Origin: Spirochaetota bacterium
Lineage (GTDB): Bacteria; Spirochaetota; UBA4802; UBA5368
Length of the DNA stretch: 64,000 nt
Assembly: GCA_035477215.1 (NCBI GenBank)
Contig: DATIKU010000030.1
Location: 22,299 to 86,298, forward strand
Direction of reading: 5' to 3'
In this document: positions 14,001 to 64,000 of the stretch, piece by piece
Numbering within the stretch: the stretch's first letter is position 1
Layout of the letters: each line of letters begins with the position of its first letter
Program-made: the position numbers and the translations under genes
The notes under the pieces: model-generated
Seen by the model: the letters and a program-made list of their open reading frames with translations, nothing else
The model's database searches: none
Told to the model about the DNA's origin: nothing

Positions 14001-16169
<2,169 letters not shown>

Positions 16170-17557: not shown

Positions 17558-19227
17558 GATTGGCGCACCCCCTTTCCGTATTCCTCCAGTATGCCCGGCT
17601 TTACCTGACAGCGCACCCTGATGTTTTTTCCGGTGGTGAAATGCCCCTTCACCATGTTGAAGGAGGCCGCGTCGACCACCTCGGCCTGTACGCGCTCTCC
17701 GGGGGCGGTTTTGCCGAGATGTTCGATGAGGTATCGCCGAGCGTCTTCCCCCGCCTGTTCAAGTGAATACGAACCCGGAATTTCGCGCGATACGCTTATC
17801 TCGGGGATGATGAGCATGCCCTTCTCGGTATCGGCGAGGAGCTCGATACTCATGGTCGTTCGCGCAAGCGCGGCGCCGATCGCGTTTGCAACCGAATAAT
17901 TGCGCGGCACCGTCACCCCGAGCGAAAAGACCGCGGCCAGGGCCTGACCGAAGGCCTCGGCCGGCCCCCCCACGGCATACATCCGTCCGGGCGTGATTTT
18001 TCTTCCCTCGAGCATTTCGTGTATGGTATACACCGGCCTTTGATTTATTTCATCGACAAGCGTATCGACCGCCGATTTGATGGCGGCAATGGCCCGCGAT
18101 ACGGCGGCTTCAGCAAGGGCGTCCGCCGGCATCCCCGACTTTTTCGCAAGCTCTGCAATCGCATTTTTCGACGATTCAACGTCCCCGTGTGTGACGCTCC
18201 CCCTGAAGTTGAAGGCGTCGATCAGGGTCGCAAAAACCCCGCCGTCGGCCACCGCCGGGCCCAGCCGCTCGGGACCCACATCGACGGCGCCGTTGTTCAC
18301 CCTGAGGAGTGAGTCGCCGCCTATCCCTATCGAGCGCGTTCTCAGCGCCCGCACCAGCGTGGGTCTTCCGTTAAGCGCGATCCCATCCGGTTCGATGATC
18401 GGGGCCCCCGACGCGAATACGGCGATGTCGGTGGTCGTACCGCCGATGTCCATGACCACCGAATCGGTGGAGATATCGCAGAGCGCGAGTATCCCCATCA
18501 CGCTTGCCGCCGGCCCCGAAAGAATGGTCTCAACCGGCAGTATGCGCGATACGGCCAGCGGCATGGTGCCGCCGTCAGCTTTAAGCACGTTTACGGAAGC
18601 GTTGACTCCGTATGCGGCCAGCGCTTTCTCCACGGCGTCGGCGAACCGGTTGTAGAGACGCCACACCGCTGAATTATAATAGGCCGTGGCTATGCGCCGT
18701 GGAAAGTTAAGGTGACCCGAAAGTGTGTGCCCCATGGTGATATAATCGGAATCGCCCGACAGCGAGTCCCTTATCGCGTTCTCGTGGGAGGGGTTGCGCG
18801 GTGAAAACTTCGAGACCGCGGCGAAAGACCTGATTCCGGATTTCCTGCACGCCGCGACCGCCTTTTCCAGCTGTCGCCGGTCGAGCTGAAGAATCTCGGT
18901 ACCCCGGTGGTCAAGCGCGCCATCGACACGATGATAGTGCTCCCCGATTTTAAAAAGATTCGGTTCGATTCCGGGCCCCGCACTTACGACCATACCGACC
19001 TTTTCGGTCGTGCCTTCCACGATTGCGTTCGTCGAGAGCGTTGTGCTGAGGTTGATACGGTGGATATCGGCGGCGCCGACCTCGCGAAGCATAGCCGCTA
19101 TTCCGTCGTTCACCGACTCGAAGAGGTTCTCATGGTTGGTTGCCACCTTGGCGGCCGCACGCACGCCACCGGCGTCGATAACGACCACGTCGGTATGGGT
19201 GCCTCCCACGTCAATACCAAGCAGCAT
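17551..19227 (-). CDS. Hydantoinase_A / oxoprolinase family (ASKHA ATPase) protein. ORF open to 19260; the likely start is MLLGIDVGG.
   Basis: LLGIDVGGTHTDVVVID, NLSTTLSTNAIVEG. 7-nt overlap with the downstream HDAC-like gene. Confidence 0.6.
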   Translation of the reverse strand: MLLGIDVGGTHTDVVVIDAGGVRAAAKVATNHENLFESVNDGIAAMLREVGAADIHRINLSTTLSTNAIVEGTTEKVGMVVSAGPGIEPNLFKIGEHYHRVDGALDHRGTEILQLDRRQLEKAVAACRKSGIRSFAAVSKFSPRNPSHENAIRDSLSGDSDYITMGHTLSGHLNFPRRIATAYYNSAVWRLYNRFADAVEKALAAYGVNASVNVLKADGGTMPLAVSRILPVETILSGPAASVMGILALCDISTDSVVMDIGGTTTDIAVFASGAPIIEPDGIALNGRPTLVRALRTRSIGIGGDSLLRVNNGAVDVGPERLGPAVADGGVFATLIDAFNFRGSVTHGDVESSKNAIAELAKKSGMPADALAEAAVSRAIAAIKSAVDTLVDEINQRPVYTIHEMLEGRKITPGRMYAVGGPAEAFGQALAAVFSLGVTVPRNYSVANAIGAALARTTMSIELLADTEKGMLIIPEISVSREIPGSYSLEQAGEDARRYLIEHLGKTAPGERVQAEVVDAASFNMVKGHFTTGKNIRVRCQVKPGILEEYGKGVRQSC

Positions 19228-19369
19228 GCAACACCTCACCGGTAGAAAGTGCCCGAGCATAGCTCAGGTACAGTCCTCTGTCAAGAATGATATGCCACCC
19301 CGAATGGGGCATTTTCATTGTTTACAAAATTCGAGAACTTTACCAGAATGAATCACAACAGGTTCAGTC

Positions 19370-53431: not shown

Positions 53432-53689
53432 ATGGAACCGCAGATCACAGGAAAAATCGAAGACTTCATCAAAACCCTCGGCGAAGAGGAATTGCGCTAT
53501 CTAAACCGGCCCGTTATCGAACGCCTCAACCCCGCCAGTCCGGGCCTGCGGTTTCACAAACTCGAAAAGGCGGAGGATAAGAATTTCCGGCCGGTACGGG
53601 TAAACAGCGATATCAGGATCATTGTTCATATTCAATCATTGCGCGGTTCGCTGCCGGAATACATCCGCTCGGTAAAAAGGGCCCAATAA
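53432..53689 (+). CDS. Possible solo RelE/ParE/HigB-superfamily toxin-like small protein
   Basis: LRFHKLEKAEDKNFRPVRVNSDIRIIVHIQ resembles the L-g-y-LRv-dyRiiY core of RelE/ParE. No antitoxin ORF is evident upstream. Confidence 0.3.
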   Translation: MEPQITGKIEDFIKTLGEEELRYLNRPVIERLNPASPGLRFHKLEKAEDKNFRPVRVNSDIRIIVHIQSLRGSLPEYIRSVKRAQ

Positions 53690-53719
53690 AAAAACCCCCG
53701 GTTTATCCAGGGGCTTCTG

Positions 53720-53791
<72 letters not shown>

Positions 53792-53797
53792 GTTGTT

Positions 53798-53879
53798 TGC
53801 GAGCGAAGGGACTTGAACCCCCACACCTTACGGTACCAGATCCTAAGTCTGGCGCGTCTGCCAGTTCCGCCACGCTCGC
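53798..53879 (-). tRNA. tRNA-Leu (anticodon TAG), long variable arm
   Basis: Reverse complement GCGAGCGTGGCGGAACTGGCAGACGCGCCAGACTTAGGATCTGG... Acceptor GCGAGCG/CGCTCGC pairs perfectly; anticodon loop is CT-TAG-GA. Confidence 0.85.
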
Positions 53880-53960
53880 CCTCCAGTCAAATATCGGCGC
53901 AAGGGTGTTATTTTCAACAACTTTTCTCCGTGCGCCCGGCCTGCCCGGGGAGAGGCGGAT

Positions 53961-54033
53961 TGGGTTGCCCGAGAATCGAACTCGGAACCTACTGATTAAG
54001 AGTCAGGTGCTCTGCCAGTTGAGCTAGCAACCC
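53961..54033 (-). tRNA. tRNA-Lys (anticodon CTT)
   Basis: Reverse complement GGGTTGCTAGCTCAACTGGCAGAGCACCTGACTCTTAATCAGTAGGTTCCGAGTTCGATTCTCGGGCAACCCA. Anticodon loop is CT-CTT-AA. Confidence 0.85.
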
Positions 54034-54158
54034 TCGGCGTCGCTTACAATAGGAGAAACGCGCGGCGGCTGTCAAGTTTTTTTCTGCCCAAAAACGTGTA
54101 CTGTAATAAACGCGCGCGCACCGGTACGCCGGCCGTGATTGTTTAAGAGTATCGCCTC

Positions 54159-56078
54159 TTACAGGCCGATACGGTGATGCTCCTCCTGCACGCGAACGCA
54201 CCAGTCGCCCACGTTCCAGTCGCCGAATACGCCCATGCCGCCCAGTTCGTTCTCGCCGCAGTACACGGGCACATGAATAACGGCAAGCCCGTCATGCGCG
54301 CGCGCACGCACAAGCGCCGCACGCAGCTCGCTTATCGATGTCCCACCGGAAATACTTAGCACGCCACGCACCGAATTCGCCATCGCGACATAGTCGACTT
54401 CGACCGAATCGGCCGTTTTGTACGTCTTTGAATACTGCGCGTTCTGCAGCCCCGAAATGGCTGCCATGCGCCGGTTGTCGAAGATCACCACGCATCCCCG
54501 CACGCCGTGCTCGATGCCGTCGATGAGTATTTGGGGATTCATCGTGAAACTGCCGTCACCGGAGAAGGCCACCGGATAAAACGGCCGCTCGGCCATTGCA
54601 GCGGCAAGCACCGCCGAGGCGGCGAAACCCATGAACGAGGAGCCGGTGTCGGTGAGCGTCTGTCCCTCGCGCTCGTCCCCGACAATCTGGAATGCGTTGG
54701 CCTGCACATCGCCGGCGTCGAAGAGCTTGACGGCGCCGGCTTCGTCGGCCCAGTCGCAGACCGCCTTGATGGCGGCCGGCTGGGTGAGTACTTCCTTTTT
54801 CCATACCACGTCGTACAGCGCGGGCGTGTCGTAGCGCGCACGCCTGAAGGCCTCCCATTCAGCACGTTTGCCGAAGACCGCCACCGCCCATTCCGAGCTC
54901 CCGTCGACCGGTCGGAACCCTTCGGCTTTCAGGTGATCGATCCAGGCGCGCAGGTTGCGCCGGGCGTCGCCGATAACCGCGACCGAACGGTTGTAGTGTG
55001 CGGCGTGCTGTGGTTCCATGTTGAAATTAATTACGGCATCGGCCTTTTTCCAGGCCGTTCCCGAACAGTCCCACTGGCACACCGCGCGCGCTCCGACCAC
55101 CACCGCGAGGTCCGCCTCGTTCATTGCGTAGTTGCCCGAGATCGAACCCTTCGACCCTCCGACGGTCATGTAGCGTGGCTCTGAATTGGGGACGATGCCC
55201 GAGGCGCTCGGACCGGCGACGATGGCCGCGTCGAGCAGCCCGGCGAGCTCGACCAGTTCCGGTCCGCAGCCCCTCGCCCCCTGACCGATCTTGATGGTTA
55301 CGCGCTTCGCCCTCCCGGCCAGCGCGCTCGCCCGTTCGAATACGCCCGCATCCGTACAGGCCGGCGGGCTCGATTCGAACCTTCCGGGAAATTCGAGAAC
55401 ATTACAGTCTTTAATAATCACCGGCTGGGTGTTCATCGGTGCCAGCAGAAAAAACGGACCGCTGAAACCAATTTGCCCTGTATGAACCGCCCCGCGTCTG
55501 AGCGCGGTAAAGATCGAACGCGGCTCTTGAAGAGAGTACGCGTTTCCCATGATTCCCGTCAGTTTCAAAAACTGGTACTGTTCGTCTCGGGGAATCTGCT
55601 GCATGTTGAAGCCTTCGTCGTGAGTGGTCTCGTCGCCGTAGATGTGGTACACTCCGACACCGTTGGACGCGGCGCAGAGCGAACCGGCGAACGCGTGCAA
55701 GGCCCCCGGGCCGATGGAAGTAATGACCGCGGCGGTCTCGCCGGTCAGCATCTTCAGCGCCGTCACGGCGTGAGCGGCGGCCGTTTCGTGACGCACGTTG
55801 AAGGTTTTTACCAGCCCCTCTTCCTCGTAAACACGCAGCACCTCGGCGATGTCGGTCGTGCCATGCCCGAATATCCCGACATATTTCCTCACTCCCTGGT
55901 TATAGAGGCCCAGCACGAGGGCTTCGGAGAGCGAAATATCCTGGAATTGCGGCATTGACCGCGACTCGACGGCGGCGGATATGGACCCGTGTTCAGCGAT
56001 CAATCGTGCACGATTCATTCGTTCGTTCATATCATTGCCTCGTTTTCCCCCAAACAACATGTCGTATGGTATTGCCAA
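54159..56078 (-). CDS. Thiamine-pyrophosphate-dependent enzyme, IolD-like (3D-(3,5/4)-trihydroxycyclohexane-1,2-dione hydrolase / acetolactate-synthase superfamily)
   Basis: Three-domain TPP enzyme layout, 639 aa (the IolD size class). YVGIFGHGTTDIAEVL resembles IolD FTIFGHGNVLG. C-terminal TPP-binding GDGSF motif (FSGDGSFTMN). Confidence 0.55.
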   Translation of the reverse strand: MAIPYDMLFGGKRGNDMNERMNRARLIAEHGSISAAVESRSMPQFQDISLSEALVLGLYNQGVRKYVGIFGHGTTDIAEVLRVYEEEGLVKTFNVRHETAAAHAVTALKMLTGETAAVITSIGPGALHAFAGSLCAASNGVGVYHIYGDETTHDEGFNMQQIPRDEQYQFLKLTGIMGNAYSLQEPRSIFTALRRGAVHTGQIGFSGPFFLLAPMNTQPVIIKDCNVLEFPGRFESSPPACTDAGVFERASALAGRAKRVTIKIGQGARGCGPELVELAGLLDAAIVAGPSASGIVPNSEPRYMTVGGSKGSISGNYAMNEADLAVVVGARAVCQWDCSGTAWKKADAVINFNMEPQHAAHYNRSVAVIGDARRNLRAWIDHLKAEGFRPVDGSSEWAVAVFGKRAEWEAFRRARYDTPALYDVVWKKEVLTQPAAIKAVCDWADEAGAVKLFDAGDVQANAFQIVGDEREGQTLTDTGSSFMGFAASAVLAAAMAERPFYPVAFSGDGSFTMNPQILIDGIEHGVRGCVVIFDNRRMAAISGLQNAQYSKTYKTADSVEVDYVAMANSVRGVLSISGGTSISELRAALVRARAHDGLAVIHVPVYCGENELGGMGVFGDWNVGDWCVRVQEEHHRIGL

Positions 56079-56098
56079 TGCCCCGGACCGCCGGGGAG

Positions 56099-56724
56099 CT
56101 ATGCAAGTTTCTTTATCGCGCTACTCAGTTCCCCGTTGGCAAGCGTGGCCGGGTCGAGCGTTTCCATCACGCGCGGAAACGAGAGGACCGTTTTTACTAT
56201 CTGTGCATCGAGTCGCCCGAGAATTTCGGCCATCGAATGATGCGTTCGCTTTGAGATGTCGAAAAGCGTTTTTCGGCTCTCGCGCTGCGAGGCCTGGCGG
56301 TGGGCGGGGTAACCGACTCCGGGCTCGACGCTGAAGATGCGGTCGAATATGAATCTGAAGTTGACGTCGCCCGCCCAGCCGAACTGGTAGAGCATGGGAA
56401 GCGAGACGCAGTTGCCGCCGTTGATCTGGGTAAAGAGCCAGGCCGCTATGGGATCGGCGACCAGGCCGCATACGATACCGGGGTACTGCACGACCGAATT
56501 GAGAAAACCAAGGCCCGTTCCACAGCCGCCGACCACGTAATCGACCCGGCCGGCGTTAATCAACAGGGCCGCGAGCAGGCCCGCGTGTATGTACGTAAGC
56601 TCGGGCTGTCCGCCGGTCTTCGTCATTCCGGCGTTTAGGATCTCGTGGCCCCTGCCCTCGAGCGCCGCCATAACGTCCGCATTGCGGTCGCCCGCGCTCG
56701 TTTCATTGATCACCGCTATCTTCA
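56099..56724 (-). CDS. RpiB/LacA/LacB family sugar-phosphate isomerase-like protein. ORF open to 56776; start MKIAVINE with GGAGGG RBS.
   Basis: VDYVVGGCGTGLGFLNSVVQYPGIVCG matches the RpiB/LacAB GxGxG active-site region. Confidence 0.6.
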
Positions 56725-56818
56725 TGATGCACCCTCCCCGGTATCCGGGCCGCTCGTACGGCCGTTGTGATTTCACCGCATCAGCACAAAAACGATCCGG
56801 CGCTACGACATGGAACCA

Positions 56819-57649
56819 TCACCGCTTCATTCCCAGTATCGCCCTTGCCTCGCCTGCGGTCGCGACCTCCCTTCCAAGCTCGCGCGCCAGTCTGACAATG
56901 CGCTCGACGAGTTGTGCGTTCGATTTTGCCGGCTCGCCCTTCCGGTAGTTTACGCAATCCTCCAGGCCCGTGCGCGCGTGGCCGCCGGAGAGGACCGCCA
57001 TCGTATTCATCGGCAACTGGGCCCGGCCGATTCCGGACACATTGAAGACCGAGCCCCGCGGCAGATGGTCGATCATTATCGCGAGATTTTTCAGTGTCCC
57101 CGGATAGCCGCCCATGCCGCCGACACCCATTACGAAGTTGATGTAATACGGCGCGGCGAGCAGCCCCTGTTTTATCAGGTTTTCGATCTCGCCGAACATC
57201 GATGGATTGTAGACCTCCATCTCGGGCTTGATGCCGCGCTCGAGCATCGCTTTCGCGAAGGCTTCGATCTCCAATCTGAGGTTGATGAAGGGCAGCTCTT
57301 TCCCCTGGTGGAAGAAGACGACCGAGCCCATGTTGAGCGAGGCCATCTCCGGGCCGGCGTCGAGGCTGGTGATGCGCTCGTTGATGGGAAGTCCCGGGCC
57401 GCCCGTTGTGTTCTGTATGATGATGTCGCAGCGCGCGCGGATGCCCTGGTTCATCTCGGCGAATATGCGCGCATCGGCCACTCCTTTCCCGGCCCCGTCG
57501 CGCGCGTGGAGATGGACCACGGCCGCGCCGGCCTCGTAACAACGGAGGGCCTCGCGGATGATCTCGTCGGGCTGCTCTGGCAGGGCCGGGTTCGCTTCCT
57601 TGCCGTGGATGCCGCCGGTGAGGGCGGCCGTTATTATCAGTTTATCCAT
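56819..57649 (-). CDS. Beta-keto acid cleavage enzyme (BKACE / 3-keto-5-aminohexanoate cleavage enzyme family, DUF849)
   Basis: MDKLIITAALTGG...NPALPEQPDEIIREALRCYEAGAAVVHLHARD is the canonical BKACE N-terminus. 276 aa, TIM barrel. Confidence 0.85.
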   Translation of the reverse strand: MDKLIITAALTGGIHGKEANPALPEQPDEIIREALRCYEAGAAVVHLHARDGAGKGVADARIFAEMNQGIRARCDIIIQNTTGGPGLPINERITSLDAGPEMASLNMGSVVFFHQGKELPFINLRLEIEAFAKAMLERGIKPEMEVYNPSMFGEIENLIKQGLLAAPYYINFVMGVGGMGGYPGTLKNLAIMIDHLPRGSVFNVSGIGRAQLPMNTMAVLSGGHARTGLEDCVNYRKGEPAKSNAQLVERIVRLARELGREVATAGEARAILGMKR

Positions 57650-57690
57650 GTCCGTACCCCTCTGTTGGTTTTACCGAACCATTTAAAATG

Positions 57691-59814
57691 TCAACGATTC
57701 CAAATCGTCCGTCCCCATTGGGCGAGCGCCGATGCCGCCGCCACCCAGCGAGCGACATCCGGGAACACGGGGACGCCGGCACTTCGAAGGGCGTCGGACA
57801 TCCTTTCCGTATAGCCGCCACCTGCGGCGCAACAGACGATGGGTTTTGCGCGTGTGGCGCTCAATGCGCCGATGCGCCCGACGATGCTTTCATCGAGCGG
57901 CGTGTCCTGAAATACGAAGAAGGGCATGATGATGTCCACTCTATCATCGTCCATGAGAGTTTTAATGACGTATTCGTAGTCGGCCGCCGTGGCCGAGCCG
58001 GTTACGTCGACCGGATTCTCCACTATATAAAAAAAGCTGAAATGCTCGCGCATGGCCTTTACCGAGTCGCGGCCGAGCGTTACAAGCTCGAGGCCCGTAC
58101 GCGGAAAATGGTCGAGCGCGTTTACCATGGGCCCCGCCCCGTTCGAGAGCATTGCGGCCCTGTTCCCCCGCGCCGGCGGCTGGAGCGCAAGCGCCTCGCA
58201 CGAGGCGTAGAGCTCGTGGAACGAATCGGCGAGCACGATTCCGTGCCTGCGCATCACGCCCTCGTACACCTCGTAGCTTCCGCCGAAGGCGCCAGTGTGC
58301 GAAACCGAGGCCTGGGCCGACTGCCTGTTGCGTCCCGTCTTAAAGACGACCACCGGCTTGCCCGCCCGCACGGCCATCGATGAGGCCTCGATGAATTTTC
58401 TCCCGTTCCCCAGTCCCTCGATATAGCTTCCGATCACCCTGGTTTCGGCGTCGTCCGCGAGGTGCGCGATGAGGTCGCCCTCGTCCACGTCAACGCGGTT
58501 GCCGTAGCTCACCATCTTCGAAACGCCGGTGATGCGCGCCTCCTCGAGAAAGACGCAGCCCCAGGTGCCGCTCTGAGTGATGAAGCTCATGGGGCCCGCC
58601 GGCGGGCGCGCGAGGCGCTCGTGGCTGTGGAAGAACGAGTCGAAGCGGCTCGCACCGTCGAACGACCCGATGCAGTTGGGGCCGATTAGCCGTATGTCGA
58701 GCGCGCGTGCCTTTCGTGCGATTTCGCGCTCCAGCTCCGCCCGCTCGCCGCCGAGCTCCTTGCCTCCTCCCGAAACGATGAGGGCGTTATGGCAGCCCAG
58801 GCGCGCCATCTCGTCTAGTATCTCAGGCATGCGCGCAAGGTCCACCACGACCACCACGAGCTCGGGCGTTTCGGGGAGCGCTGCGAGTTCGGGATAACTC
58901 CTGAGGCCCATGAGCGAATCGGAATTGGGATTGATGGGATACACTTTCCCCGCATACTCATAGTTGACGAGCGAATCGAGGATGACATTGCCGATTTTGC
59001 CCGGTGTCGATGACGCACCCATCACGGCGACCGAAGCAGGTTTGAAAAAAGACGCGAGCCTTTCGGTGCGCGGTTTTTCGTATTCCCCCTTTGTTCCCGC
59101 AACTTCCTTCACGAGCACCATCTTGGCGTCGACCACCGAAACGCCCGCGGCGGTGGCGATGATGGGATTGAAGTCGACCGATTCGTACAGCTCCGCCGCT
59201 TCGATACCGAGGTCGGCGATACGCACGACGGCGTCGACCAGCGCTTCCATTTTAATTGCCGCGGCGCCGCGGTAGCCGTCAAGCAGGGCGCGGCCTTTCA
59301 GGCCCGCAATCATCCCCTCGATCTCTCCGCGCGACACCGGCAGGTCCCGGAACGCGACGTCCTCCAATAGATCGGTGAAGACACCGCCGAGTCCCACCAT
59401 TATAAGCGGGCCGAATACCGGGTCGTTCTGCAGACCGACTATGATTTCGATCCCGCTTTCGGCCTGCTCCTCGATAAGGATGCCGAGATAGCCCGGTACT
59501 TTTTTCGAAACGAACATGCCATGCATCTCGTCGAAATTCTTGAGCAATTTTTCCTCGGAGCTTACTCCGGTGCGCACTCCGCCGAGCTCGGTCTTATGCA
59601 GCACGCCGTCCGAAGCGAGTTTGAGCACCAGCGGATACCTGAGCGTCTTCGCCGCGCCAAGCGCTTCTTTCCGTTCAGCGCAGAGAATACCTCTGGGGAC
59701 CGGCACTCCACGCCGGGCCAGCATGGCCTTCATCTCGTGTTCGGGCACAGCGCGCGCACCCCTCCCGGAGAGATCCCTGCAGCGCTCTGCGAAGGAATCC
59801 ATCATGTCATCCAT
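57691..59814 (-). CDS. ADP-forming acyl-CoA synthetase (ACD family), single fused polypeptide with ATP-grasp domain N-terminal to the CoA-binding / ligase-CoA domains
   Basis: N-terminal ATP-grasp (LKLASDGVLHKTELGGV), central CoA-binding (VAVMGASSTPGKIGNVIL), then IGPNCIGSF and SHTGAFGG phospho-His loop. Confidence 0.8.
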   Translation of the reverse strand: MDDMMDSFAERCRDLSGRGARAVPEHEMKAMLARRGVPVPRGILCAERKEALGAAKTLRYPLVLKLASDGVLHKTELGGVRTGVSSEEKLLKNFDEMHGMFVSKKVPGYLGILIEEQAESGIEIIVGLQNDPVFGPLIMVGLGGVFTDLLEDVAFRDLPVSRGEIEGMIAGLKGRALLDGYRGAAAIKMEALVDAVVRIADLGIEAAELYESVDFNPIIATAAGVSVVDAKMVLVKEVAGTKGEYEKPRTERLASFFKPASVAVMGASSTPGKIGNVILDSLVNYEYAGKVYPINPNSDSLMGLRSYPELAALPETPELVVVVVDLARMPEILDEMARLGCHNALIVSGGGKELGGERAELEREIARKARALDIRLIGPNCIGSFDGASRFDSFFHSHERLARPPAGPMSFITQSGTWGCVFLEEARITGVSKMVSYGNRVDVDEGDLIAHLADDAETRVIGSYIEGLGNGRKFIEASSMAVRAGKPVVVFKTGRNRQSAQASVSHTGAFGGSYEVYEGVMRRHGIVLADSFHELYASCEALALQPPARGNRAAMLSNGAGPMVNALDHFPRTGLELVTLGRDSVKAMREHFSFFYIVENPVDVTGSATAADYEYVIKTLMDDDRVDIIMPFFVFQDTPLDESIVGRIGALSATRAKPIVCCAAGGGYTERMSDALRSAGVPVFPDVARWVAAASALAQWGRTIWNR

Positions 59815-60217
59815 TGTTCTTTTCCCCCGCGGATTTTGCCGCCTTTACGCTTTCCATGATGTACGATGTATCGATCGCCGGCACGAATACGCAGGCGATG
59901 CGCACCGGTTCGCTTCCCGTGTTCAACGTCTTGTGTTCCACCCCGGGAGGCGCGTACATCGCCACACCGGGCTTCAATTCAAATTCCTTTCCATCCATCC
60001 AGGCCCTGCCGCTTCCGGACATGATGATCATGAGCTCGCCCGAAACGGGATGCGCGTGCAAATCGGTGCACCCCCCGTTGGGTGCGAGAATAGATTCGAT
60101 GAGCGAAAATCCCTGCACCGCCGCGTCCGTATCGGGCGACATGATCACCTTCAGCTCACGCTCGAACGGCTTATCGACTTTCGCCGACTGTATACTGTTC
60201 ATATCCACGATCGGCAT
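59807..60217 (-). CDS. Cupin-domain protein. ORF open to 60349; likely start MPIVDMNS with AAGAGGA RBS.
   Basis: G(C)TDLHAHP...GELMIIMSGSGRAW...PPGVEHKTLNTG two-motif cupin signature. Overlaps the acyl-CoA synthetase start by 8 nt. Confidence 0.7.
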   Translation of the reverse strand: MPIVDMNSIQSAKVDKPFERELKVIMSPDTDAAVQGFSLIESILAPNGGCTDLHAHPVSGELMIIMSGSGRAWMDGKEFELKPGVAMYAPPGVEHKTLNTGSEPVRIACVFVPAIDTSYIMESVKAAKSAGEKNNG

Positions 60218-60416
60218 GAGTGTTCCTCTTTCAAATTCGCCCCATCGTCGAAGGGGCGTAAGATATCCCTTAACATTGGGGGATTGGCGCGTGTGACCGT
60301 TTATTAAAAACGCCGCCCGCGTTTTGCGTAATATACATTTATATTGCATCTATGTCAACAATTTCACACTAATTTATTTTTTTTCTCCGCGCTATTTCTC
60401 GTTGACAATCGGGCAT

Positions 60417-60436
60417 GCACTATTATTGCATAGTGC
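60417..60436. promoter_or_regulatory. Inverted repeat GCACTAT-N6-ATAGTGC immediately upstream of the second IclR gene; candidate operator. TTGACA at 60402-60407.
   Basis: 7-6-7 inverted repeat seen directly in the sequence, in the divergent intergenic region between the cupin operon and the IclR gene. Confidence 0.4.
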
Positions 60437-60439
60437 GAA

Positions 60440-61198
60440 ATGGGCGCGACAATACAATCACTCGAGCGCGGCCTCGAAATAATGGGAGTGATCGCGCGGG
60501 CCGGACGCCCGCTCTCGCTTACCGAAATCTCGGAGAGCTTTTCGATTGACCGGTCCTCGGTTTTTCGCCTCTTAAGCACGCTGGCGAAGCACAATTTTGT
60601 GTTTCAAGACCCCGACACAAAGCGCTATTCGCTCGGTTTCCGAATGCTGGAGTATGCCGGCCTGTATGGTGAGCAGTCGCATCTGGAAAGCCTCATACGA
60701 CCCATCATGCGGCGGATCCTCGCGTCGACGAAGCAAAACACCCATCTGGCAATACTGGACGGCGCCGAGGTGGTCTTTGTCGCCGTTGAACAGCCAAGGG
60801 AATCGATTTCGCTCAATCTATCCGTCGGCATGCGCGAGCCCTCGACGGTCACGGCACTTGGCAGGGCACTCCTCGCGTTCAGAGACGCGGACACCGTCGA
60901 AAGCGCGCTTTCCGCCGCCGAATATCGCAGATATACCGAAAAATCGCCGCGTTCCGCCAAAGAGGTGATGCGCTCTCTCGACTCCGTCCGCGCTCGCAGG
61001 CTTGCCATCGATGACGGAGAATACAAGAAGGGTATCGTCTGTTTCGCCTCGCCGGTCCTCAATCACCGGAAGGAGGCGCTTTTTTCAATCGGAATATCCG
61101 GCCCGTCCGACCTCATACGGCCGCAGGCCGACAGTTATGCGGAGATCGTACGACAGTCGGGTATCGACGCGTCGCTGCTCCTCGGCTATCCCCAGTAA
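60440..61198 (+). CDS. IclR family transcriptional regulator (paralog of 25841-26611)
   Basis: SLERGLEIMGVIARAGRPLSLTEISESFSIDRSSVFRLLSTL HTH and IclR C-terminal domain. 252 aa. Confidence 0.8.
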   Translation: MGATIQSLERGLEIMGVIARAGRPLSLTEISESFSIDRSSVFRLLSTLAKHNFVFQDPDTKRYSLGFRMLEYAGLYGEQSHLESLIRPIMRRILASTKQNTHLAILDGAEVVFVAVEQPRESISLNLSVGMREPSTVTALGRALLAFRDADTVESALSAAEYRRYTEKSPRSAKEVMRSLDSVRARRLAIDDGEYKKGIVCFASPVLNHRKEALFSIGISGPSDLIRPQADSYAEIVRQSGIDASLLLGYPQ

Positions 61199-61243: not shown

Positions 61244-63484
61244 TTAACCGGCGGAAGGCAGGTAAATACTGAACCTCGAACCTGAACCCTCTTCCGAATC
61301 CAGCACAATGGTCCCGCCGTGTTTTTTTACTATCGAGTACACAATCGCAAGCCCCAGGCCGCTCCCCTTCCGCTTGGTAGAAAAATACGGATCGAACACG
61401 CGCTCTCGCAACATCCTCGGTATGCCTACTCCGGAATCCTCCACGGATATCCTTATATAATCTCCGGGGGCGAGCGCAAATGCGTCCCCCTCTCCGATTT
61501 TAACCCGCTGCGCGGCGAACCTCACCAGGCCGCCTGCGGGCATGGCCTGTTCCGCGTTGATGGCGAGGTTCTGTATCACCTGAATCAACTGACCACTGTC
61601 GGCCATTACGTCGCCAAGATCATCGGGTAAATCGAATTCGCAGAGCACGCCCCTGCCGTCCAGGCAGACATTGGCGGCTTCCCTGATAAGCGGACCGATT
61701 TCAATCTTTTCCCTTACCGGTTCGCCTCCGCGCGCGAAGGTGAGGAGCTGGCGGGTGAGATCGCGCGCCTGCGTTATCGCCCTTTCGGCGTTTTCGAGAT
61801 AACGGTACGTTTCCATCTTTTCGTCCGACCGGACTTTCGCAAGGGAGACATTCCCGAGAATGGTGGTCAACAGGTTGTTGAAATCGTGGGCAATACCGCC
61901 TGCCAGCTCGCCTATCGATTCCAGCCTCTGCGCTTTCCGCAGCTCATCCTCGAGCCTCACGCGCCCGGTAATATCGCGAATCACCAGTACCGCCCCGCCC
62001 GGCATGTCGAAACGCCCGCGAAGGGTCGTCGCCGAATATTCCACGATTTTCGCGGCGCCGTTCCGTGCGATGAGGCTCGCCCTGCGCAATGAGCCCGCGC
62101 CTTTTTCTCTATCCGGCATTTCTCCGAACGGGTCCGGTACGGGGTTGTCCGTCTGTTCGTCGATCATTGTAAGAATCTCGTCAACTGGCCTGCCCTCGGC
62201 TTCGCCCGAGGACCAGCCGGTAAACGATTCGGCGGCCGGATTGAAAAGAATCACGCGCCCTTCGCGGTCGACGGTAATAATGCCGTCGGCAATATCCCGT
62301 ATCGTAACCGCCAGCCTCGCTTTTTCGGCCTCAAGCGCCGTTTCCGCCACTTTGCGCTCTGTGATGTCCTGCACGGCGCTGACCAGTCGCACCACGCGCC
62401 GCTCTTTCTCGTCCCAATAGGGAAACACCGTGTCCCTGATCCACCTCAGGCTTCCATCGGCCGCGAAAATCCTTGCTTCCACCGTCCCGATATTGCCCTT
62501 CAATAGCTCTGGTATCGCTTTTTTAAAAAGGTGTATATCGTCGGGGTGAACTATTTCGAGCCATAAATCGAAGGAACCAAGGCGATCGAGCGGATAGCCC
62601 ATAGTTTGAATAAATTTACCCGCCGTCCACTCTCTCTCGAAACTTCCGTCGGAATTGAGCCGGAGACTGCTCGCCGCGTCGATGGCAATTTCCGAAAGTA
62701 TTCGGTACCTCTCCTCGGATTTACGGAGCGATTCTCTGGAGTCGACGATATCGGTTATATCGGTGAGTACCCCGCGTAACCCTGCAGCCTTCCCGTTAAC
62801 GCGCACCACGTTGTCGAAAATCCTTACCCAGCGGACATCGCCGCTCTTCGTGACGACCCGATACTCTCCCGGGCGGGATCTTCCCTCTAATGATTCGACG
62901 AAATCTTTGTTAACGCGGGAGATGTCCTCATCATGGAAAAAGCCCAGATAAGACGCCCCTGTGATCTCATCAGTTGAATAACCGAGTATCGCCTCGATAG
63001 CGGGGCTGATATAGGTCACCAGTCCTTCGTGGTCCACCTCGTAGATGACATCGCTGATATCCTCCACCATCCGGCGATATTTTTCCTCGCTCTCCTTCAG
63101 GCGCGTTTCGAGGCAGTGCCGCCGCATCGCCGTTTCGAGGGCCGAGAACAGGTCCAGGTCCCGTATCGGTTTCATTAAGATGCCGTAAGGGTCCGTCTCG
63201 CGGGCGCTTTTAAGCGTGTCGGGGTCCGCATGCGCAGTAATATAGACCACCGGAATCCCGCGCCGGGCGTACAGCTCCTCCGCCGCCTGGATGCCGCTCA
63301 TTTTACCGGAGAGGGTTATATCCATCAGCACTATATCGGGCTTCGTGCTTACGGACAACTCCAGCGACACTTCCCCGCTTACGGCGATACCGGAAACCTC
63401 ATATCCGAGATTATCGAGACGGGCCGCCAGATCCGCGGCAATGAGCGCTTCGTCCTCAACTATCAGTACGCGCTTTTTTGACAT
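61244..63484 (-). CDS. Signal-transduction protein: N-terminal REC, multiple PAS domains, HisKA and HATPase_c (response-regulator/histidine-kinase hybrid)
   Basis: RVLIVEDEALIAADL...DIVLMDITL receiver. HDFNNLL H-box. G-box DSGVGI...GSGLGL. 746 aa. Confidence 0.8.
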   Translation of the reverse strand: MSKKRVLIVEDEALIAADLAARLDNLGYEVSGIAVSGEVSLELSVSTKPDIVLMDITLSGKMSGIQAAEELYARRGIPVVYITAHADPDTLKSARETDPYGILMKPIRDLDLFSALETAMRRHCLETRLKESEEKYRRMVEDISDVIYEVDHEGLVTYISPAIEAILGYSTDEITGASYLGFFHDEDISRVNKDFVESLEGRSRPGEYRVVTKSGDVRWVRIFDNVVRVNGKAAGLRGVLTDITDIVDSRESLRKSEERYRILSEIAIDAASSLRLNSDGSFEREWTAGKFIQTMGYPLDRLGSFDLWLEIVHPDDIHLFKKAIPELLKGNIGTVEARIFAADGSLRWIRDTVFPYWDEKERRVVRLVSAVQDITERKVAETALEAEKARLAVTIRDIADGIITVDREGRVILFNPAAESFTGWSSGEAEGRPVDEILTMIDEQTDNPVPDPFGEMPDREKGAGSLRRASLIARNGAAKIVEYSATTLRGRFDMPGGAVLVIRDITGRVRLEDELRKAQRLESIGELAGGIAHDFNNLLTTILGNVSLAKVRSDEKMETYRYLENAERAITQARDLTRQLLTFARGGEPVREKIEIGPLIREAANVCLDGRGVLCEFDLPDDLGDVMADSGQLIQVIQNLAINAEQAMPAGGLVRFAAQRVKIGEGDAFALAPGDYIRISVEDSGVGIPRMLRERVFDPYFSTKRKGSGLGLAIVYSIVKKHGGTIVLDSEEGSGSRFSIYLPSAG

Positions 63485-64000
63485 GCTTTTCCCCTACGGC
63501 CGGCGGCATTTTATCGCATTAGTTTTTTTGAATTAAATTCGAAATACCAGTTTCGAGGAAAGTCAATTTTGCGCAAGAAGTTATTCCGTAAATTTCAAAC
63601 GGCATCCTGTGATGGGAAATTTGTCCACTTGATGCAACGAGACGTTTTAATCCGAACCTGATCGAACCCGGCGGGCATTTTGAGATTTAGCGAAGTCGGT
63701 ATCCTTTTATGGCGATCCCCATGTCGCAAACGCGAGACTAAGTACGACTGCAATGAGCATGCGAATTCCTTCCGCGATCCCCGATCGCCAATTGCCGCGT
63801 CGCTTATCCCGAATTCGAGGCGTATCGACGCAACCTCCGGGCCGACGGCCGTTATGCACGTGTAGCTTGAAAGTGGCGAGACCTGCGCGGAATGCGGGCG
63901 AAAGCGCGCACCCTCCCCAATCTACAGCTTGAAAACGTTCCTCAGTTTCAATCCCTCTTCCGCCCTGCCTTCCAGTTTGAGTTTGCCCTGTATCAGCGCC

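Follow-up and report, generated by a model that had tools for sequence, protein, structure and literature searches.

The window analysed here, a stretch of 64,000 nt from a Spirochaetota MAG (assembly GCA_035477215.1, contig DATIKU010000030.1), carries five catabolic genes and a divergent gene for an IclR-family regulator (Table 1). All six ORFs were recovered by an ORF scan on the strands given in a preliminary description of this DNA. The superfamily assignments made there are upheld, with each family call far above its Pfam cut-off, and two coordinates needed minor correction. The upper coordinate of the isomerase gene, for which a GGAGGG ribosome-binding site was found, had been set one base out of frame at 56724. 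The ORF of the thiamine-dependent (ThDP) enzyme (54159-56078) extends upstream to a TTG at 56078; because its homologues are about 623 aa long and a GAGG ribosome-binding site precedes the ATG at 56030, the latter is probably the true start.

The catabolic genes share one strand, with intergenic gaps of 20-93 nt and a single 8-nt overlap between the cupin and synthetase genes, which are translationally coupled. Many related loci keep the same gene order, so the juxtaposition is far beyond chance. Very probably, the five genes form a real operon of a modular family under control of the regulator. PFOR and a glycyl-radical enzyme are encoded in the same window, from which we read the host as a strictly anaerobic, fermentative member of Spirochaetota; the IclR-linked catabolic operon of an anaerobe proposed earlier is thus borne out.

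Table 1. The operon and its surroundings (positions within the window)
Feature	Position	Strand	Basis or remark
tRNA-Gly, tRNA-Leu, tRNA-Lys	53719-54033	-	
ThDP-dependent enzyme, 623 aa	54159..56030	-	Pfam TPP_enzyme_N, M and C
DhuI-type (RpiB-fold) aldose-ketose isomerase, 208 aa	56099..56725	-	Pfam LacAB_rpiB, NCBIfam PRK09273
BKACE	56819..57649	-	Pfam BKACE 318.6 bits, full length
ADP-forming (NDP-forming) acyl-CoA synthetase, fused beta-alpha, 707 aa	57691..59814	-	ATP-grasp_5, CoA_binding_2, Succ_CoA_lig, Ligase_CoA_2
Small metal-binding monocupin, 136 aa	59807..60217	-	Pfam Cupin_2
Sigma-70-type promoter TTGACA-17-TATATT of the catabolic operon	60330..60358	-	11/12 matches in scan
Palindrome GCACTAT-N6-ATAGTGC, 7-nt arms	60417..60436	.	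Read from sequence; abuts iclR start codon
Divergent IclR-family regulator, 252 aa	60440..61198	+	Pfam HTH_IclR, IclR_C
Hybrid PAS sensor kinase	61244..63484	-	ORF scan; domains taken from L001 orthologue
Gfo/Idh/MocA-SCP2 oxidoreductase gene, 3´ end (last 25 codons)	63925..64000	-	Cut by window end

For comparison we used a family set of 86 loci with an orthologue of the ThDP enzyme at 45% identity or more, and a well-flanked subset of 44 loci with at least 5 kb on each side. Of these 44, 33 contain an iclR gene. The regulator of the window matches the PcaR, BhcR and KdgR models weakly, in all cases under the cut-off. Upstream of the cupin gene, the promoter is almost invariant among five orthologous intergenic regions and holds an ATGCAAT motif within its spacer. 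The inverted repeat noticed earlier at the divergent IclR promoter is confirmed as a palindrome conserved in four orthologous loci (L001, L006, L008 and L031), and it is a probable IclR operator. IclR bound at the palindrome and the ATGCAAT motif would then keep the operon repressed as long as no pathway intermediate is present.

That BKACE yields an acyl-CoA and the ADP-forming synthetase turns its thioester into ATP, as already proposed, is still the most sensible reading. The synthetase is colinear over residues 21-702 with its best NCBIfam model, the ADP-forming 3-hydroxypropionate-CoA ligase. It scores 830 bits there (below the cut-off of 1300) versus 462 bits with the acetate-CoA ligase model, which suggests a small hydroxyacyl group as its substrate. 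The isomerase had been called RpiB/LacAB-like. This stands at the level of fold (52 bits with Pfam LacAB_rpiB) and falls at the level of family, since the NCBIfam models of RpiB and LacB fail and PRK09273 is passed (195 bits, cut-off 137). Its matches in the PDB are 4u8e, 2ppw, 3ono and 3c5y (E 1e-46 to 1e-40), and its sequence places it in the DhuI branch, whose members act on unphosphorylated keto-uronates. DhuI and KduI/IolB are isofunctional isomerases that share no homology; KduI and IolB belong to one family, DhuI being the RpiB-fold analogue of KduI (PMC12838403). In 60 of the 86 loci, no more than 10 kb separates the isomerase gene from the ThDP gene, and the two are mostly adjacent; an RpiB-like gene is found in 29 of the 44 well-flanked loci.

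The cupin, modelled by AF2 with pLDDT of 92, has a 3-His/1-Glu metal site (His54, His56, Glu61, His95) that is invariant across 24 orthologues. Its fold resembles cupin phosphomannose isomerase, TM1459, KdgF and DddK equally, and similarity to cupin-type sugar isomerases is weak in both sequence and fold. It is limited to loci of the BKACE/synthetase type and moves together with BKACE as a module, even next to a different ThDP enzyme. By analogy, we suggest that it might act as keto-isomerase.

The ThDP enzyme fails all NCBIfam equivalog models. With the IolD model it reaches 121 bits (cut-off 715), the same as with acetolactate synthase models, and its identity to annotated iolD genes, about 25%, equals that to ilvG. 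A fold search with the predicted structure gave equal resemblance to AHAS, pyruvate oxidase, HACL, oxalyl-CoA decarboxylase and CDH. The earlier view of an IolD-like C-C hydrolase that opens cyclic 1,2-diones is therefore not supported, and we rejected IolD orthology. The window encodes no IolE-type dehydratase, and the same is true of nearly all related loci. Judged by sequence, the enzyme forms an isolated, uncharacterised clade within the ALS/POX-like superfamily. The copy in the window is the founding member of the cluster family.

The route had also been called complete. Its conserved Gfo/Idh/MocA dehydrogenase partner, though, lies outside the interval flagged at that time and is truncated by the window end. 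The fragment is 92% identical to residues 474-498 of the L006 protein (tblastn), and L001, L006 and L008 have a Gfo gene at the same position. Present in 31 of the 44 well-flanked loci and often adjacent to the ThDP gene (L018 reads both as one ORF), the Gfo oxidoreductase is a conserved partner of the ThDP enzyme. IolG is its best, weak match, and the best match in the PDB is 3ezy, a dehydrogenase of Thermotoga maritima. The sensor kinase between iclR and the Gfo gene is confined to L001, L006 and L008, the closest relatives; L031 lacks it and the Gfo gene there abuts iclR. Probably, the kinase is a neighbour outside the pathway. No transporter gene is present with the operon.

A widespread and uncharacterised family of modular clusters includes the operon of the window as one variant. 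By synteny, the family core consists of the novel ThDP enzyme, the Gfo/Idh/MocA dehydrogenase and usually the DhuI-type isomerase, followed by one of three mutually exclusive downstream modules. D1 comprises transketolase (TK), sometimes with a CoA-acylating malonate-semialdehyde dehydrogenase. In L056, for example, the order is TK-TK-MMSDH-RpiBl-ThDP-GH1-GPH-Gfo, and the MMSDH passes the IolA/MmsA family model with 570 bits (cut-off 448). D2, the type in the window, comprises cupin, BKACE and synthetase. Genes of D2 type were found in 17 loci and those of transketolase in 12; no locus has both. The D2 module is not rigid, since L018, L020, L022 and L048 lack BKACE and L003 lacks the synthetase. 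D3 comprises an SSADH-like aldehyde dehydrogenase (ALDH) and an IlvD/arabinonate-type dehydratase, nearest to succinate-semialdehyde dehydrogenases and arabinonate dehydratase, respectively. The IlvD-type dehydratase occurs in 5 loci, and cultured Labrenzia, Salipiger and Phaeobacter carry D3 beside ThDP orthologues of about 50% identity. In clostridial and Phaeobacter variants, a Zn-ADH and a molybdenum enzyme of the xanthine dehydrogenase family replace Gfo.

We lean slightly towards a scheme in which a hydroxy-aldehyde acid made by the ThDP enzyme is converted by one or more isomerases to a beta-keto acid, which BKACE cleaves to a hydroxyacyl-CoA that finally yields ATP. The entry source is most simply imagined as a 4-deoxy-5-keto-uronate (DHU or DEH) from breakdown of pectin, alginate, glycosaminoglycan or ulvan, but this particular assignment is doubtful. 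Working together, the ThDP enzyme and the Gfo dehydrogenase would carry out a ThDP-dependent decarboxylation and then oxidise the aldehyde so formed, giving the C5 acid 3,4-dihydroxy-5-oxopentanoate. The DhuI-like isomerase would convert its alpha-hydroxy-aldehyde end, giving 3,5-dihydroxy-4-oxopentanoate, and a keto shift by the metal cupin would produce 4,5-dihydroxy-3-oxopentanoate (2-deoxy-3-keto-pentonate). BKACE might then transfer the acetate unit to acetyl-CoA, releasing acetoacetate and glyceryl-CoA, and the synthetase would form glycerate, CoA and ATP from glyceryl-CoA, ADP and Pi. Leaving aside the entry substrate, we give the overall mechanism, as far as the C5 intermediate, just under an even chance; the identity of that intermediate is more tentative still. 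On chemical grounds, 3,4-dihydroxy-5-oxopentanoate would fit all three modules. Isomerase and TK could lead from it to malonate semialdehyde (D1), two keto shifts to the BKACE substrate (D2), and ALDH with a 2,3-dihydroxy-acid dehydratase to 2-oxoglutarate (D3).

Several observations count against this route. The ThDP clade is equidistant from decarboxylases, carboligases, lyases and dione hydrolases by sequence and fold. The transporters found in sister clusters are in many cases sugar ABC systems of ribose or CUT1 type, which to our knowledge do not carry DHU or DEH. An enzyme for malonate semialdehyde is missing from most transketolase loci, and we saw no genes for uronate lyase, GH88/GH105 hydrolase, KdgF, KduD or KdgK beside any cluster. 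The Zn-ADH and molybdenum enzyme of clostridial and Phaeobacter variants need an extra assumption, for example KDG to deoxyribose to deoxyribonate. Finally, L049, L071 and L072 contain xylose-isomerase-like TIM-barrel proteins and extra Gfo genes, a feature also of iol operons.

A modified cyclitol (inositol-type) pathway, close to the idea of the preliminary description, is unlikely. Here Gfo would oxidise inositol, a dehydratase (the cupin or one encoded elsewhere) would form a cyclic 1,2-dione, and the ThDP enzyme, as a functional IolD analogue, would open the ring hydrolytically to 5-deoxy-glucuronate. The DhuI-like isomerase in place of IolB would give 2-deoxy-5-keto-gluconate, more keto shifts 2-deoxy-3-keto-gluconate, and BKACE cleavage trihydroxybutyryl-CoA and acetoacetate, with ATP from the synthetase. 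The set of Gfo dehydrogenase, ThDP enzyme and aldose-ketose isomerase mirrors IolG/IolD/IolB, and IolB shares a family with KduI, whose analogue is DhuI. L049 (RpiBl, TIM-barrel protein, ThDP enzyme, ribose-type ABC transporter, Gfo, TIM-barrel protein) looks like an iol operon, sister clusters carry the IolA-like MMSDH, the clostridial Zn-ADH weakly resembles IolM, and several sources annotate homologues as IolD. However, the ThDP enzyme is as near to acetolactate synthase, homologues of IolE, IolC and IolJ are absent from the window, and TIM-barrel proteins occur in just 4 of the 86 loci, those scanned (two of L049, one of Salipiger) matching no NCBIfam family at E<=1e-15. Two more keto shifts or an oxidoisomerase would be required between 2-deoxy-5-keto-gluconate and a beta-keto acid, and the leftover C4 sugar acid would need another pathway. 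TK acting on 2-deoxy-5-keto-gluconate would release a C4 semialdehyde instead of the malonate semialdehyde expected by MMSDH, and ALDH with dehydratase would end at a compound still needing an aldolase. Less probable again is the same operon logic with a smaller BKACE substrate, either 4-hydroxy-3-oxobutanoate, isomerised from 3-hydroxy-4-oxobutanoate and cleaved to glycolyl-CoA, or malonate semialdehyde, cleaved to formyl-CoA; the synthetase would then release glycolate or formate with ATP. Enzymes of the BKACE family can cleave malonate semialdehyde with acetyl-CoA to formyl-CoA and acetoacetate in vitro, but the same CORE-cycle paper describes this reaction as unknown from natural pathways (PMC11961710). 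MMSDH in sister clusters implies malonate semialdehyde, but the window variant has no transketolase to make it, and transketolase and BKACE never co-occur. Isomerisation of the C4 hydroxy-aldehyde acid would yield a beta-keto acid in a single step, which leaves the strictly co-occurring cupin without a role. The C4 intermediate has no 3-OH for cleavage, so the transketolase module is unexplained. Nor does it explain the dehydratase module, as malate would result from ALDH alone.

Amino-acid fermentation, with BKACE as a genuine 3-keto-5-aminohexanoate cleavage enzyme (Kce) and the operon as a variant of the lysine type, is highly improbable. Kce is its closest NCBIfam model, 2y7d its best match in the PDB (E 1.6e-52), and NCBI and JGI label homologues "3-keto-5-aminohexanoate cleavage protein", but the score of 300 bits fails the curated cut-off of 382. 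In alignment with 2y7d the HxH and E/D motifs are kept, with Ile in place of Kce Glu14, which presumably contacts the amino group of the substrate. Aminomutase, 3,5-diaminohexanoate dehydrogenase and 3-aminobutyryl-CoA lyase were not found nearby, and the conserved partners are all carbohydrate-type enzymes. Insertion of the cluster as a recent genomic island, suggested earlier from its position beside the three tRNA genes, is very improbable, even though its GC (0.60-0.62) exceeds that of the immediate flank (about 0.54). The tRNA and tig-clpP-clpX-lon flank and the gene order are the same in L001, L006, L008 and L011 (ThDP enzymes 72-85% identical), and GC3 of the cluster (0.72-0.81) compares with 0.73-0.76 in tig, clpP, clpX and lon. 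The GC excess of 3-7 points recurs in every relative, with flanking GC from 0.38 to 0.61, and thus reflects amino-acid composition. In agreement with the preliminary description, no integrase is found among the window ORFs and no att-like direct repeats were detected; neither did we see a close relative with an otherwise identical tRNA-tig junction in which a repeat scar takes the place of the cluster. The operon is vertically inherited. Occurrence of the family in several phyla and on alphaproteobacterial plasmids means that horizontal transfer happened at some time depth.

As noted before, the operon does not match the canonical iol, lysine-fermentation or carnitine operons, and our literature search did not find a paper describing the cluster. 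It probably encodes an undescribed degradation route for a sugar-derived acid that saves one ATP. The oxidative deoxyribonate pathway, where no enzyme is known for the step from glyceryl-CoA to glycerate (PMC9007349), offers a precedent for the BKACE step: the cleavage proposed there is that of 2-deoxy-3-keto-ribonate with acetyl-CoA to glyceryl-CoA and acetoacetate (PMC6365646).

The operon is a new variant put together from known enzyme families, with a new kind of ThDP enzyme at its centre, and it belongs to a widespread modular family of clusters. This family appears to be undescribed: no paper about it was found in the searchable literature, and the Faecalicatena sulfoquinovose paper does not mention the cluster genes. 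An ORF scan finds five closely packed ORFs on the minus strand at 54.1-60.2 kb and a divergent plus-strand ORF next to them. The cupin gene runs 8 nt into the synthetase gene; elsewhere in the operon the gaps are 20-93 nt. Pfam confirms the superfamilies of all six proteins (ThDP enzyme, LacAB_rpiB, BKACE, synthetase, Cupin_2 and IclR), so that the six genes and superfamilies named in the preliminary description are indeed present, with two coordinates corrected. The RpiB-like gene starts at 56725 instead of 56724. For the ThDP enzyme, the most probable start is ATG 56030 and not TTG 56078, because a GAGG ribosome-binding site is found there and the homologues are about 623 aa long. The neighboring tRNA genes are probably transcribed independently of the operon, from their own promoter-like site. 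Between tig and tRNA-Gly there is an 85-aa ORF (window 53432-53689, plus strand) with no Pfam match, which may not be a gene.

Features in the window outside the operon genes and in the operon control region
Feature	Position in window	Strand	Remark
Glycyl-radical enzyme, PFL-like and Gly_radical domains, 833 aa	6705-9206	+	
Radical-SAM/DUF2344 protein	10294-12744	-	
Type III glutamine synthetase	14001-16169	+	
Hydantoinase/oxoprolinase-like protein	17551-19260	-	
PFOR, 1180 aa	33394-36936	-	
tRNA-Gly, tRNA-Leu, tRNA-Lys			directly downstream of operon
Promoter-like site TTGACA-18-TATTGT	54046-54075	-	immediately upstream of tRNA-Lys, just past the ThDP stop codon
Operon promoter TTGACA-17-TATATT	60358-60330	-	iclR-cupin intergenic region
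Palindrome GCACTAT-N6-ATAGTGC	60417-60436		adjoins iclR start codon

Judged from its gene content, the host is a strict anaerobe, because PFOR, a glycyl-radical enzyme and radical-SAM proteins are encoded elsewhere in the window. PFOR, type III glutamine synthetase, the radical-SAM/DUF2344 protein and the hydantoinase/oxoprolinase-like protein jointly mark it as such. Directly upstream of the glycyl-radical enzyme, a 270-aa ORF (5866-6678, plus strand) could be its activase.

The inverted repeat noticed earlier at the promoter is real and conserved. In the intergenic regions of four related MAG loci, the operon promoter and the palindrome are almost unchanged while the remaining spacer has diverged, and an ATGCAAT motif common to the palindrome and the promoter spacer is likewise conserved. 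We regard the palindrome as a putative IclR binding site. The regulator itself contains HTH_IclR (59.9 bits) and IclR_C (107.8 bits) domains of Pfam, and it passed none of the NCBIfam equivalog models.

As far as sequence can tell, the ThDP enzyme represents an isolated clade whose reaction is not readable from homology, since IolD, ALS and fold matches are all equally distant. It has the N, M and C domains of Pfam in the ALS/POX-like three-domain architecture, and both Glu82 (the cofactor-activating Glu) and the motif G491-D492-G493...D518-N519 are invariant in 18 homologues. None of the curated NCBIfam models is passed; acetolactate synthase models score about 120-123 bits and PRK08266 130 bits. 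Among proteins of solved structure, pyruvate oxidase and AHAS come closest (E about 1e-17, improving to 1e-22 in a profile search). An AlphaFold model (pLDDT 84) fits AHAS, POX, 2-hydroxyacyl-CoA lyase, oxalyl-CoA decarboxylase and cyclohexanedione hydrolase all to the same degree (E 1e-31 to 1e-34 at 17-21% identity) and does not discriminate the family. The enzyme was first read as an IolD-like C-C hydrolase. Its assignment to IolD has to be abandoned: the IolD equivalog model TIGR04377 (cut-off 715) gives 121.5 bits, the protein is 24-25.5% identical to iolD genes on plasmids (E 1e-11 to 1e-13) and equally so to ilvG, and no iolE, iolB, iolC or iolJ lies within the 64-kb window. True orthologues on annotated plasmids (about 50% identity) are named only "thiamine pyrophosphate-dependent enzyme". 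Relatives at E 1e-20 or better number several thousand, a count that takes in other ThDP enzymes; the clade occurs in anaerobic digesters, groundwater, animal guts and marine Alphaproteobacteria.

The isomerase, initially called RpiB/LacAB-like, keeps this name at the level of fold: Pfam LacAB_rpiB (52 bits) is the only pass among the RpiB/LacAB models. The RpiB model (19.9, cut-off 138.65) and LacB TIGR01119 (23.8, cut-off 312.55) both fail, and NCBIfam PRK09273 is passed with 195.2 bits (cut-off 137). Matches to PDB 4u8e, 2ppw, 3ono and 3c5y have E values of 1e-40 to 1e-46, that to 4u8e covering residues 1-188 (E 8e-46). The latter protein, gbs1892, we take to be DhuI. According to a 2025 paper (PMC12838403), DhuI shares the fold of RpiB and is analogous, without being homologous, to KduI, which forms one family with IolB. 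A DhuD/KduD-type SDR reductase was found neither in the operon nor in orthologous loci of the same variant.

The BKACE protein matches Pfam PF05853 from end to end (positions 1-274 of 274; 318.6 bits) and retains the Zn-ligand motifs, HLH and (L/F)ED aligning with Kce 2y7d. Kce is also its closest model, with 300.2 bits, below the equivalog cut-off of 382 (PDB 2y7d, E 1.6e-52). In the same alignment Glu14 of Kce, presumably the acidic residue binding the amino group of the substrate, is replaced by Ile14. The synthetase combines ATP-grasp_5 (185.8 bits), CoA_binding_2 (82.8), Succ_CoA_lig (143.4) and Ligase_CoA_2 (31.1). It is colinear with ADP-forming 3-hydroxypropionate-CoA ligase (830 bits, cut-off 1300) and scores 462 against the acetate enzyme (cut-off 1200) and 358 against the 4-hydroxybutyrate enzyme (cut-off 1300), so that the cut-off of none of these characterised specificity groups is reached. 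The cupin (Cupin_2, 59.9 bits; confident beta-barrel model) has a 3-His/1-Glu metal site, His54, His56, Glu61 and His95 being invariant in 24 sequences. Fold and sequence searches do not separate cupin sugar isomerases, TM1459, KdgF and DddK. The fold of KdgF is matched with TM about 0.86-0.88 on target, no better than TM1459 or cupin phosphomannose isomerase, and by sequence KdgF gives no match at E 0.01 or better. Neither KdgF nor 3,4-ketoisomerase is thus singled out as the function of the cupin.

The closest relatives of the operon are found in Spirochaetota or "Leptospirales" MAGs, with ThDP enzymes 72-85% identical and the gene order identical to that of the window. On one side they share the tRNA-Lys/Leu/Gly genes and the tig-clpP-clpX-lon flank; on the other side iclR is accompanied by a PAS sensor kinase and an approximately 500-aa Gfo/Idh/MocA-SCP2 oxidoreductase. 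The final bases of the window (63925-63999) are the last 25 codons of this oxidoreductase gene (92% identity). The interval to which the operon was first assigned thus misses a conserved pathway gene, which is cut by the window end, and the route cannot be called complete as proposed at first. The suspected island at the tRNA genes fares no better. No integrase was found among the ORFs of the window, a search for att-like direct repeats gave chance-level repeats only, and the tRNA/tig junction beside the cluster is conserved in four relatives. When 54.1-61.2 kb is compared with the flank, as was recommended, GC3 of the cluster genes (0.72-0.81) matches that of tig, clpP, clpX and lon (0.73-0.76). 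Total GC of the cluster exceeds that of the flank by 3-7 points in every relative examined. Because this excess recurs whatever the flanking GC (0.38-0.61), protein composition must be behind it. The composition of the cluster argues against recent transfer.

A GTDB scan with one genome per species yielded 80 loci, which grew to 86 through additional look-ups and searches of plasmids; a locus counts as a member if it carries a ThDP orthologue of at least 45% identity. The picture of the family was built by clustering the ORFs, annotating them with Pfam and NCBIfam and counting genes by tblastn. Flanks of 5 kb or more on both sides are available for 44 loci; of these, 31 contain a Gfo/Idh/MocA dehydrogenase (Gfo), 29 a DhuI-like isomerase and 33 IclR. 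The Gfo gene often lies immediately 3' of the ThDP gene, and in the related locus L018 (9959-13696, plus strand) the two form a single 1245-aa ORF. Its sister locus L020 has them as two genes; the fusion is natural or an assembly error. Clostridia (Anaerotruncus colihominis, Hungatella, Lacrimispora, Faecalicatena) and Phaeobacter have, in place of Gfo, a Zn-ADH together with an XDH-family FAD/FeS/Mo enzyme and an anion transporter. Four of the 86 loci encode TIM-barrel (AP_endonuc_2) proteins, and the three scanned (two from locus L049, one from Salipiger) match no NCBIfam family at E 1e-15 or better. No large unknown protein recurring near the cluster is common to different variants.

Three alternative downstream modules accompany this core. 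D1 is a transketolase, split or fused (12 loci), in some loci with a CoA-acylating malonate/methylmalonate-semialdehyde dehydrogenase (MMSDH; 570 bits, above its cut-off); in one case, locus L056, a single operon reads TK-TK-MMSDH-RpiBl-ThDP-GH1-GPH-Gfo. D2, the type of the window, is cupin, BKACE and synthetase (17 loci, in which identity to the ThDP enzyme of the window is never below 64%). D3 consists of an SSADH-like aldehyde dehydrogenase and an IlvD/arabinonate-type dehydratase (5 loci, among them those of cultured Labrenzia, Salipiger and Phaeobacter). No locus combines D1 with D2. Cupin and BKACE travel as one unit: orthologues of both (59% and 71% identity) are found together beside a different, ALS-like ThDP enzyme (27%) in an actinobacterial MAG (GCA_018824995.1, locus L090, 2821-10837). 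That locus, which looks like a parallel pathway on the same module, also encodes a 463-aa protein without family or PDB match, an Amidohydro_3 protein and a CrtI-like flavoprotein.

Several other neighbors deserve mention. BKACE remnants of about 100 aa between the cupin and RpiB-like genes (L023 9023-9337, L051 9086-9361) suggest decay of the module in these lineages. In clostridial L066 (14033-15760 and the next gene), the transketolase genes are followed by a dihydroxyacetone-kinase-family protein and a short classical RpiB, and in L060/L061 (548-4418) a further pair of transketolase genes lies upstream, along with genes for a TalC/FSA-type aldolase and a ROK protein; judging from these clostridial neighbors, the transketolases may yield unphosphorylated C3/C4 ketoses. 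A URO-D-like protein is found near the ThDP gene in each of three loci that are otherwise different (L095 16665-17846, L036 8794-9855, L090 11410-12555), and a B12-binding radical-SAM protein adjoins the Gfo gene in L073 (4509-6074). That they demethylate a methylated sugar is pure speculation.

What might the operon degrade? The earlier reading of a catabolic, IclR-controlled operon that converts a thioester into ATP and has no match among known operons is kept. BKACE chemistry needs R-CO-CH2-COO-, that is, a 2-deoxy-3-keto acid, and the isomerase needs an alpha-hydroxy aldehyde. We infer that 3,4-dihydroxy-5-oxopentanoate is the intermediate that would serve all three exits with the fewest extra assumptions; a route leading from a sugar-derived acid through it to glyceryl-CoA and ATP is our best explanation, if a tentative one. 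At the D1 exit, isomerase and then transketolase would give malonate semialdehyde and a C2 unit, consistent with the presence of MMSDH. At the D3 exit, aldehyde dehydrogenase and then a 2,3-dihydroxy-acid dehydratase would lead directly to 2-oxoglutarate, consistent with the SSADH-like enzyme and the pentonate-type dehydratase. At the D2 exit, the isomerase and one more keto shift would produce 2-deoxy-3-keto-pentonate. We tentatively assign the shift to the cupin, because it is the only D2-specific protein otherwise without a role. BKACE would then react this compound with acetyl-CoA to glyceryl-CoA and acetoacetate, just as proposed for the BKACE of the oxidative deoxyribonate pathway (PMC6365646). 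The ADP-forming synthetase might finally turn glyceryl-CoA into glycerate and ATP, a conversion without known enzyme in the published deoxyribonate pathway (PMC9007349).

The simplest source of the C5 acid would be a 4-deoxy-5-keto-uronate (DHU or DEH), decarboxylated by the ThDP enzyme, with the new aldehyde oxidised by the Gfo enzyme. This entry would use the two core enzymes once each and in their fused order; DhuI homology and GPH-type symporters are also consistent with it. In the Zn-ADH/Mo variants, KDG could go through deoxyribose and deoxyribonate to the same C5 aldehyde-acid, which recalls the Mo-dependent deoxyribose dehydrogenase of P. simiae. In its general form, the proposal would be that the new ThDP family and Gfo oxidatively decarboxylate 4-deoxy-5-keto-uronates or related 2-keto-3-deoxy sugar acids into a non-phosphorylative "C5 deoxy-uronate" hub with three drains, and this scheme is rather unlikely. 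No uronate lyase/hydrolase, KdgF, KduD or KdgK genes lie beside any cluster examined, nor are there uronate-degradation genes in the wider annotated context of the Labrenzia cluster. Against the entry step speak also the ribose-type or CUT1 sugar ABC transporters in many sister clusters, as well as TIM-barrel proteins and extra Gfo genes in loci L049, L071 and L072, as in iol operons. The malonate-semialdehyde enzyme is moreover missing from most transketolase loci, and some D2 loci are without BKACE or without synthetase.

The strongest competing reading is a cyclitol route, with the ThDP enzyme as a functional analogue of IolD and the isomerase as that of IolB. It explains the upstream half about as well, but takes more steps to arrive at a beta-keto acid and agrees less with the two remaining exits, and we consider it unlikely. 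A smaller BKACE substrate, 4-hydroxy-3-oxobutanoate or malonate semialdehyde, is improbable. It would be very surprising if BKACE were a true Kce, even with Kce as its closest model: the score stays below the cut-off, Glu14 is lost, and no lysine-fermentation genes are found near the cluster in relatives' loci and family counts.

Other readings were rejected. A phloroglucinol/hydroxyhydroquinone route finds no reductase or cyclohydrolase, and the 3,5-dioxohexanoate BKACE model gives 207 against a cut-off of 430. The idea of a sulfo-sugar route through Xsc (sulfoacetaldehyde acetyltransferase) arose from a TauE/SafE-family permease gene beside the ABC transporter in three Treponema-like loci (L032 5393-6124, minus strand; L035; L046). 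The gene does not recur elsewhere, and Xsc is outside the top 25 model matches. Glyoxylate carboligase with Hyi and GlxR, suggested by the Salipiger locus, fails because Gcl is not among the best matches and the transporters are sugar-type; it is kept only as an analogy for a ThDP product that might next be isomerised. A hexitol/3-keto-sugar lyase yielding two glyceraldehydes would fit the ALDH/IlvD module and the dihydroxyacetone kinase gene of L066, but it supplies no beta-keto acid and the ALDH is SSADH-like, so we rank it low.

The cluster deserves interest because our preferred route through the C5 aldehyde-acid is a concrete, testable hypothesis and sister clusters have cultured carriers. 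Within the family these are Anaerotruncus colihominis DSM 17241, Faecalicatena faecalis, Labrenzia and Phaeobacter piscinae. The modular picture of one core and three exits can be tested directly. Automatic annotation names the ThDP clade "IolD" or "acetolactate synthase-like" and the neighboring BKACE a lysine-fermentation enzyme. These names are probably wrong and metabolic reconstructions of carrier organisms are therefore misled. If the inferred route is true, it represents a new fermentation of abundant uronate-derived or deoxy sugar acids, in which an ATP-consuming kinase step is bypassed and one ATP is gained from a hydroxyacyl-CoA. It would give first physiological roles to a BKACE subgroup, an ADP-forming synthetase subgroup, a small cupin and the new ThDP enzyme, the last of interest for biocatalysis. 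The D2 route would further supply the missing glyceryl-CoA to glycerate enzyme of BKACE-type deoxy-sugar-acid pathways.

Comparison with known systems shows how the parts are recombined. The sulfoquinovose transketolase pathway (sulfo-TK; PMC11659671) resembles only sister clusters, in pairing an isomerase with a split transketolase that acts on an unphosphorylated, acid-bearing ketose. The clusters have no sulfoquinovosidase or sulfonate-specific genes except the TauE-family gene beside three loci, and the window has no transketolase at all. With myo-inositol catabolism (IolG-IolE-IolD-IolB-IolC-IolJ-IolA) the family shares a Gfo/Idh/MocA dehydrogenase, an ALS/POX-superfamily ThDP enzyme, an isomerase for an unphosphorylated uronate-like aldehyde and, in sister clusters, an IolA-type dehydrogenase. 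Several points set it apart: the IolD model is not passed by the ThDP enzyme, whose identity to IolD is about 25%; there is no IolE, IolC or IolJ; the isomerase is folded like RpiB and not like the KduI/IolB cupins; and CoA-dependent cleavage or transketolase stands downstream instead of kinase and aldolase. The DHU pathway (KduI-KduD or DhuI-DhuD, then KdgK-KdgA) has in common the DhuI-family isomerase passing PRK09273, a regulator of the IclR family, to which KdgR belongs, and the GPH-family symporters of relatives. The operon contains no DhuD/KduD reductase, KDG kinase or KDPG aldolase, and carbon would leave by decarboxylation and CoA-dependent cleavage, not by reduction and phosphorylation.

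With Kce and the BKACE family (PF05853), the protein of the window shares fold, Zn-ligand motifs, full-length colinearity and the expected chemistry (beta-keto acid and acetyl-CoA to acetoacetate and acyl-CoA); it departs from Kce by its score, the Glu14 to Ile exchange and a carbohydrate-type gene context. Fermenters typically use ADP-forming acyl-CoA synthetases to conserve a thioester as ATP. The synthetase has the same domains in the fused beta-alpha order as the archaeal/bacterial ACD and thaumarchaeal 3-hydroxypropionyl-CoA synthetase, yet it is below all equivalog cut-offs, lies in a sugar-acid operon and is translationally coupled to the cupin. The oxidative 2-deoxyribose/2-deoxyribonate pathway of Pseudomonas simiae and Paraburkholderia (Price et al. 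2019, PMC6365646) has a proposed BKACE step like the one described, from a 2-deoxy-3-keto sugar acid to glyceryl-CoA and acetoacetate, and shares the end products glycerate and acetyl units. Its sugar is oxidised by an XDH-family molybdenum dehydrogenase, a type of enzyme that the sister clusters of Clostridia and Phaeobacter encode as well. The operon of the window lacks the SDR deoxyribonate dehydrogenase, lactonase and glycerate kinase of that pathway and has, beyond it, the ThDP enzyme, the DhuI-type isomerase, the cupin and the ADP-forming synthetase.
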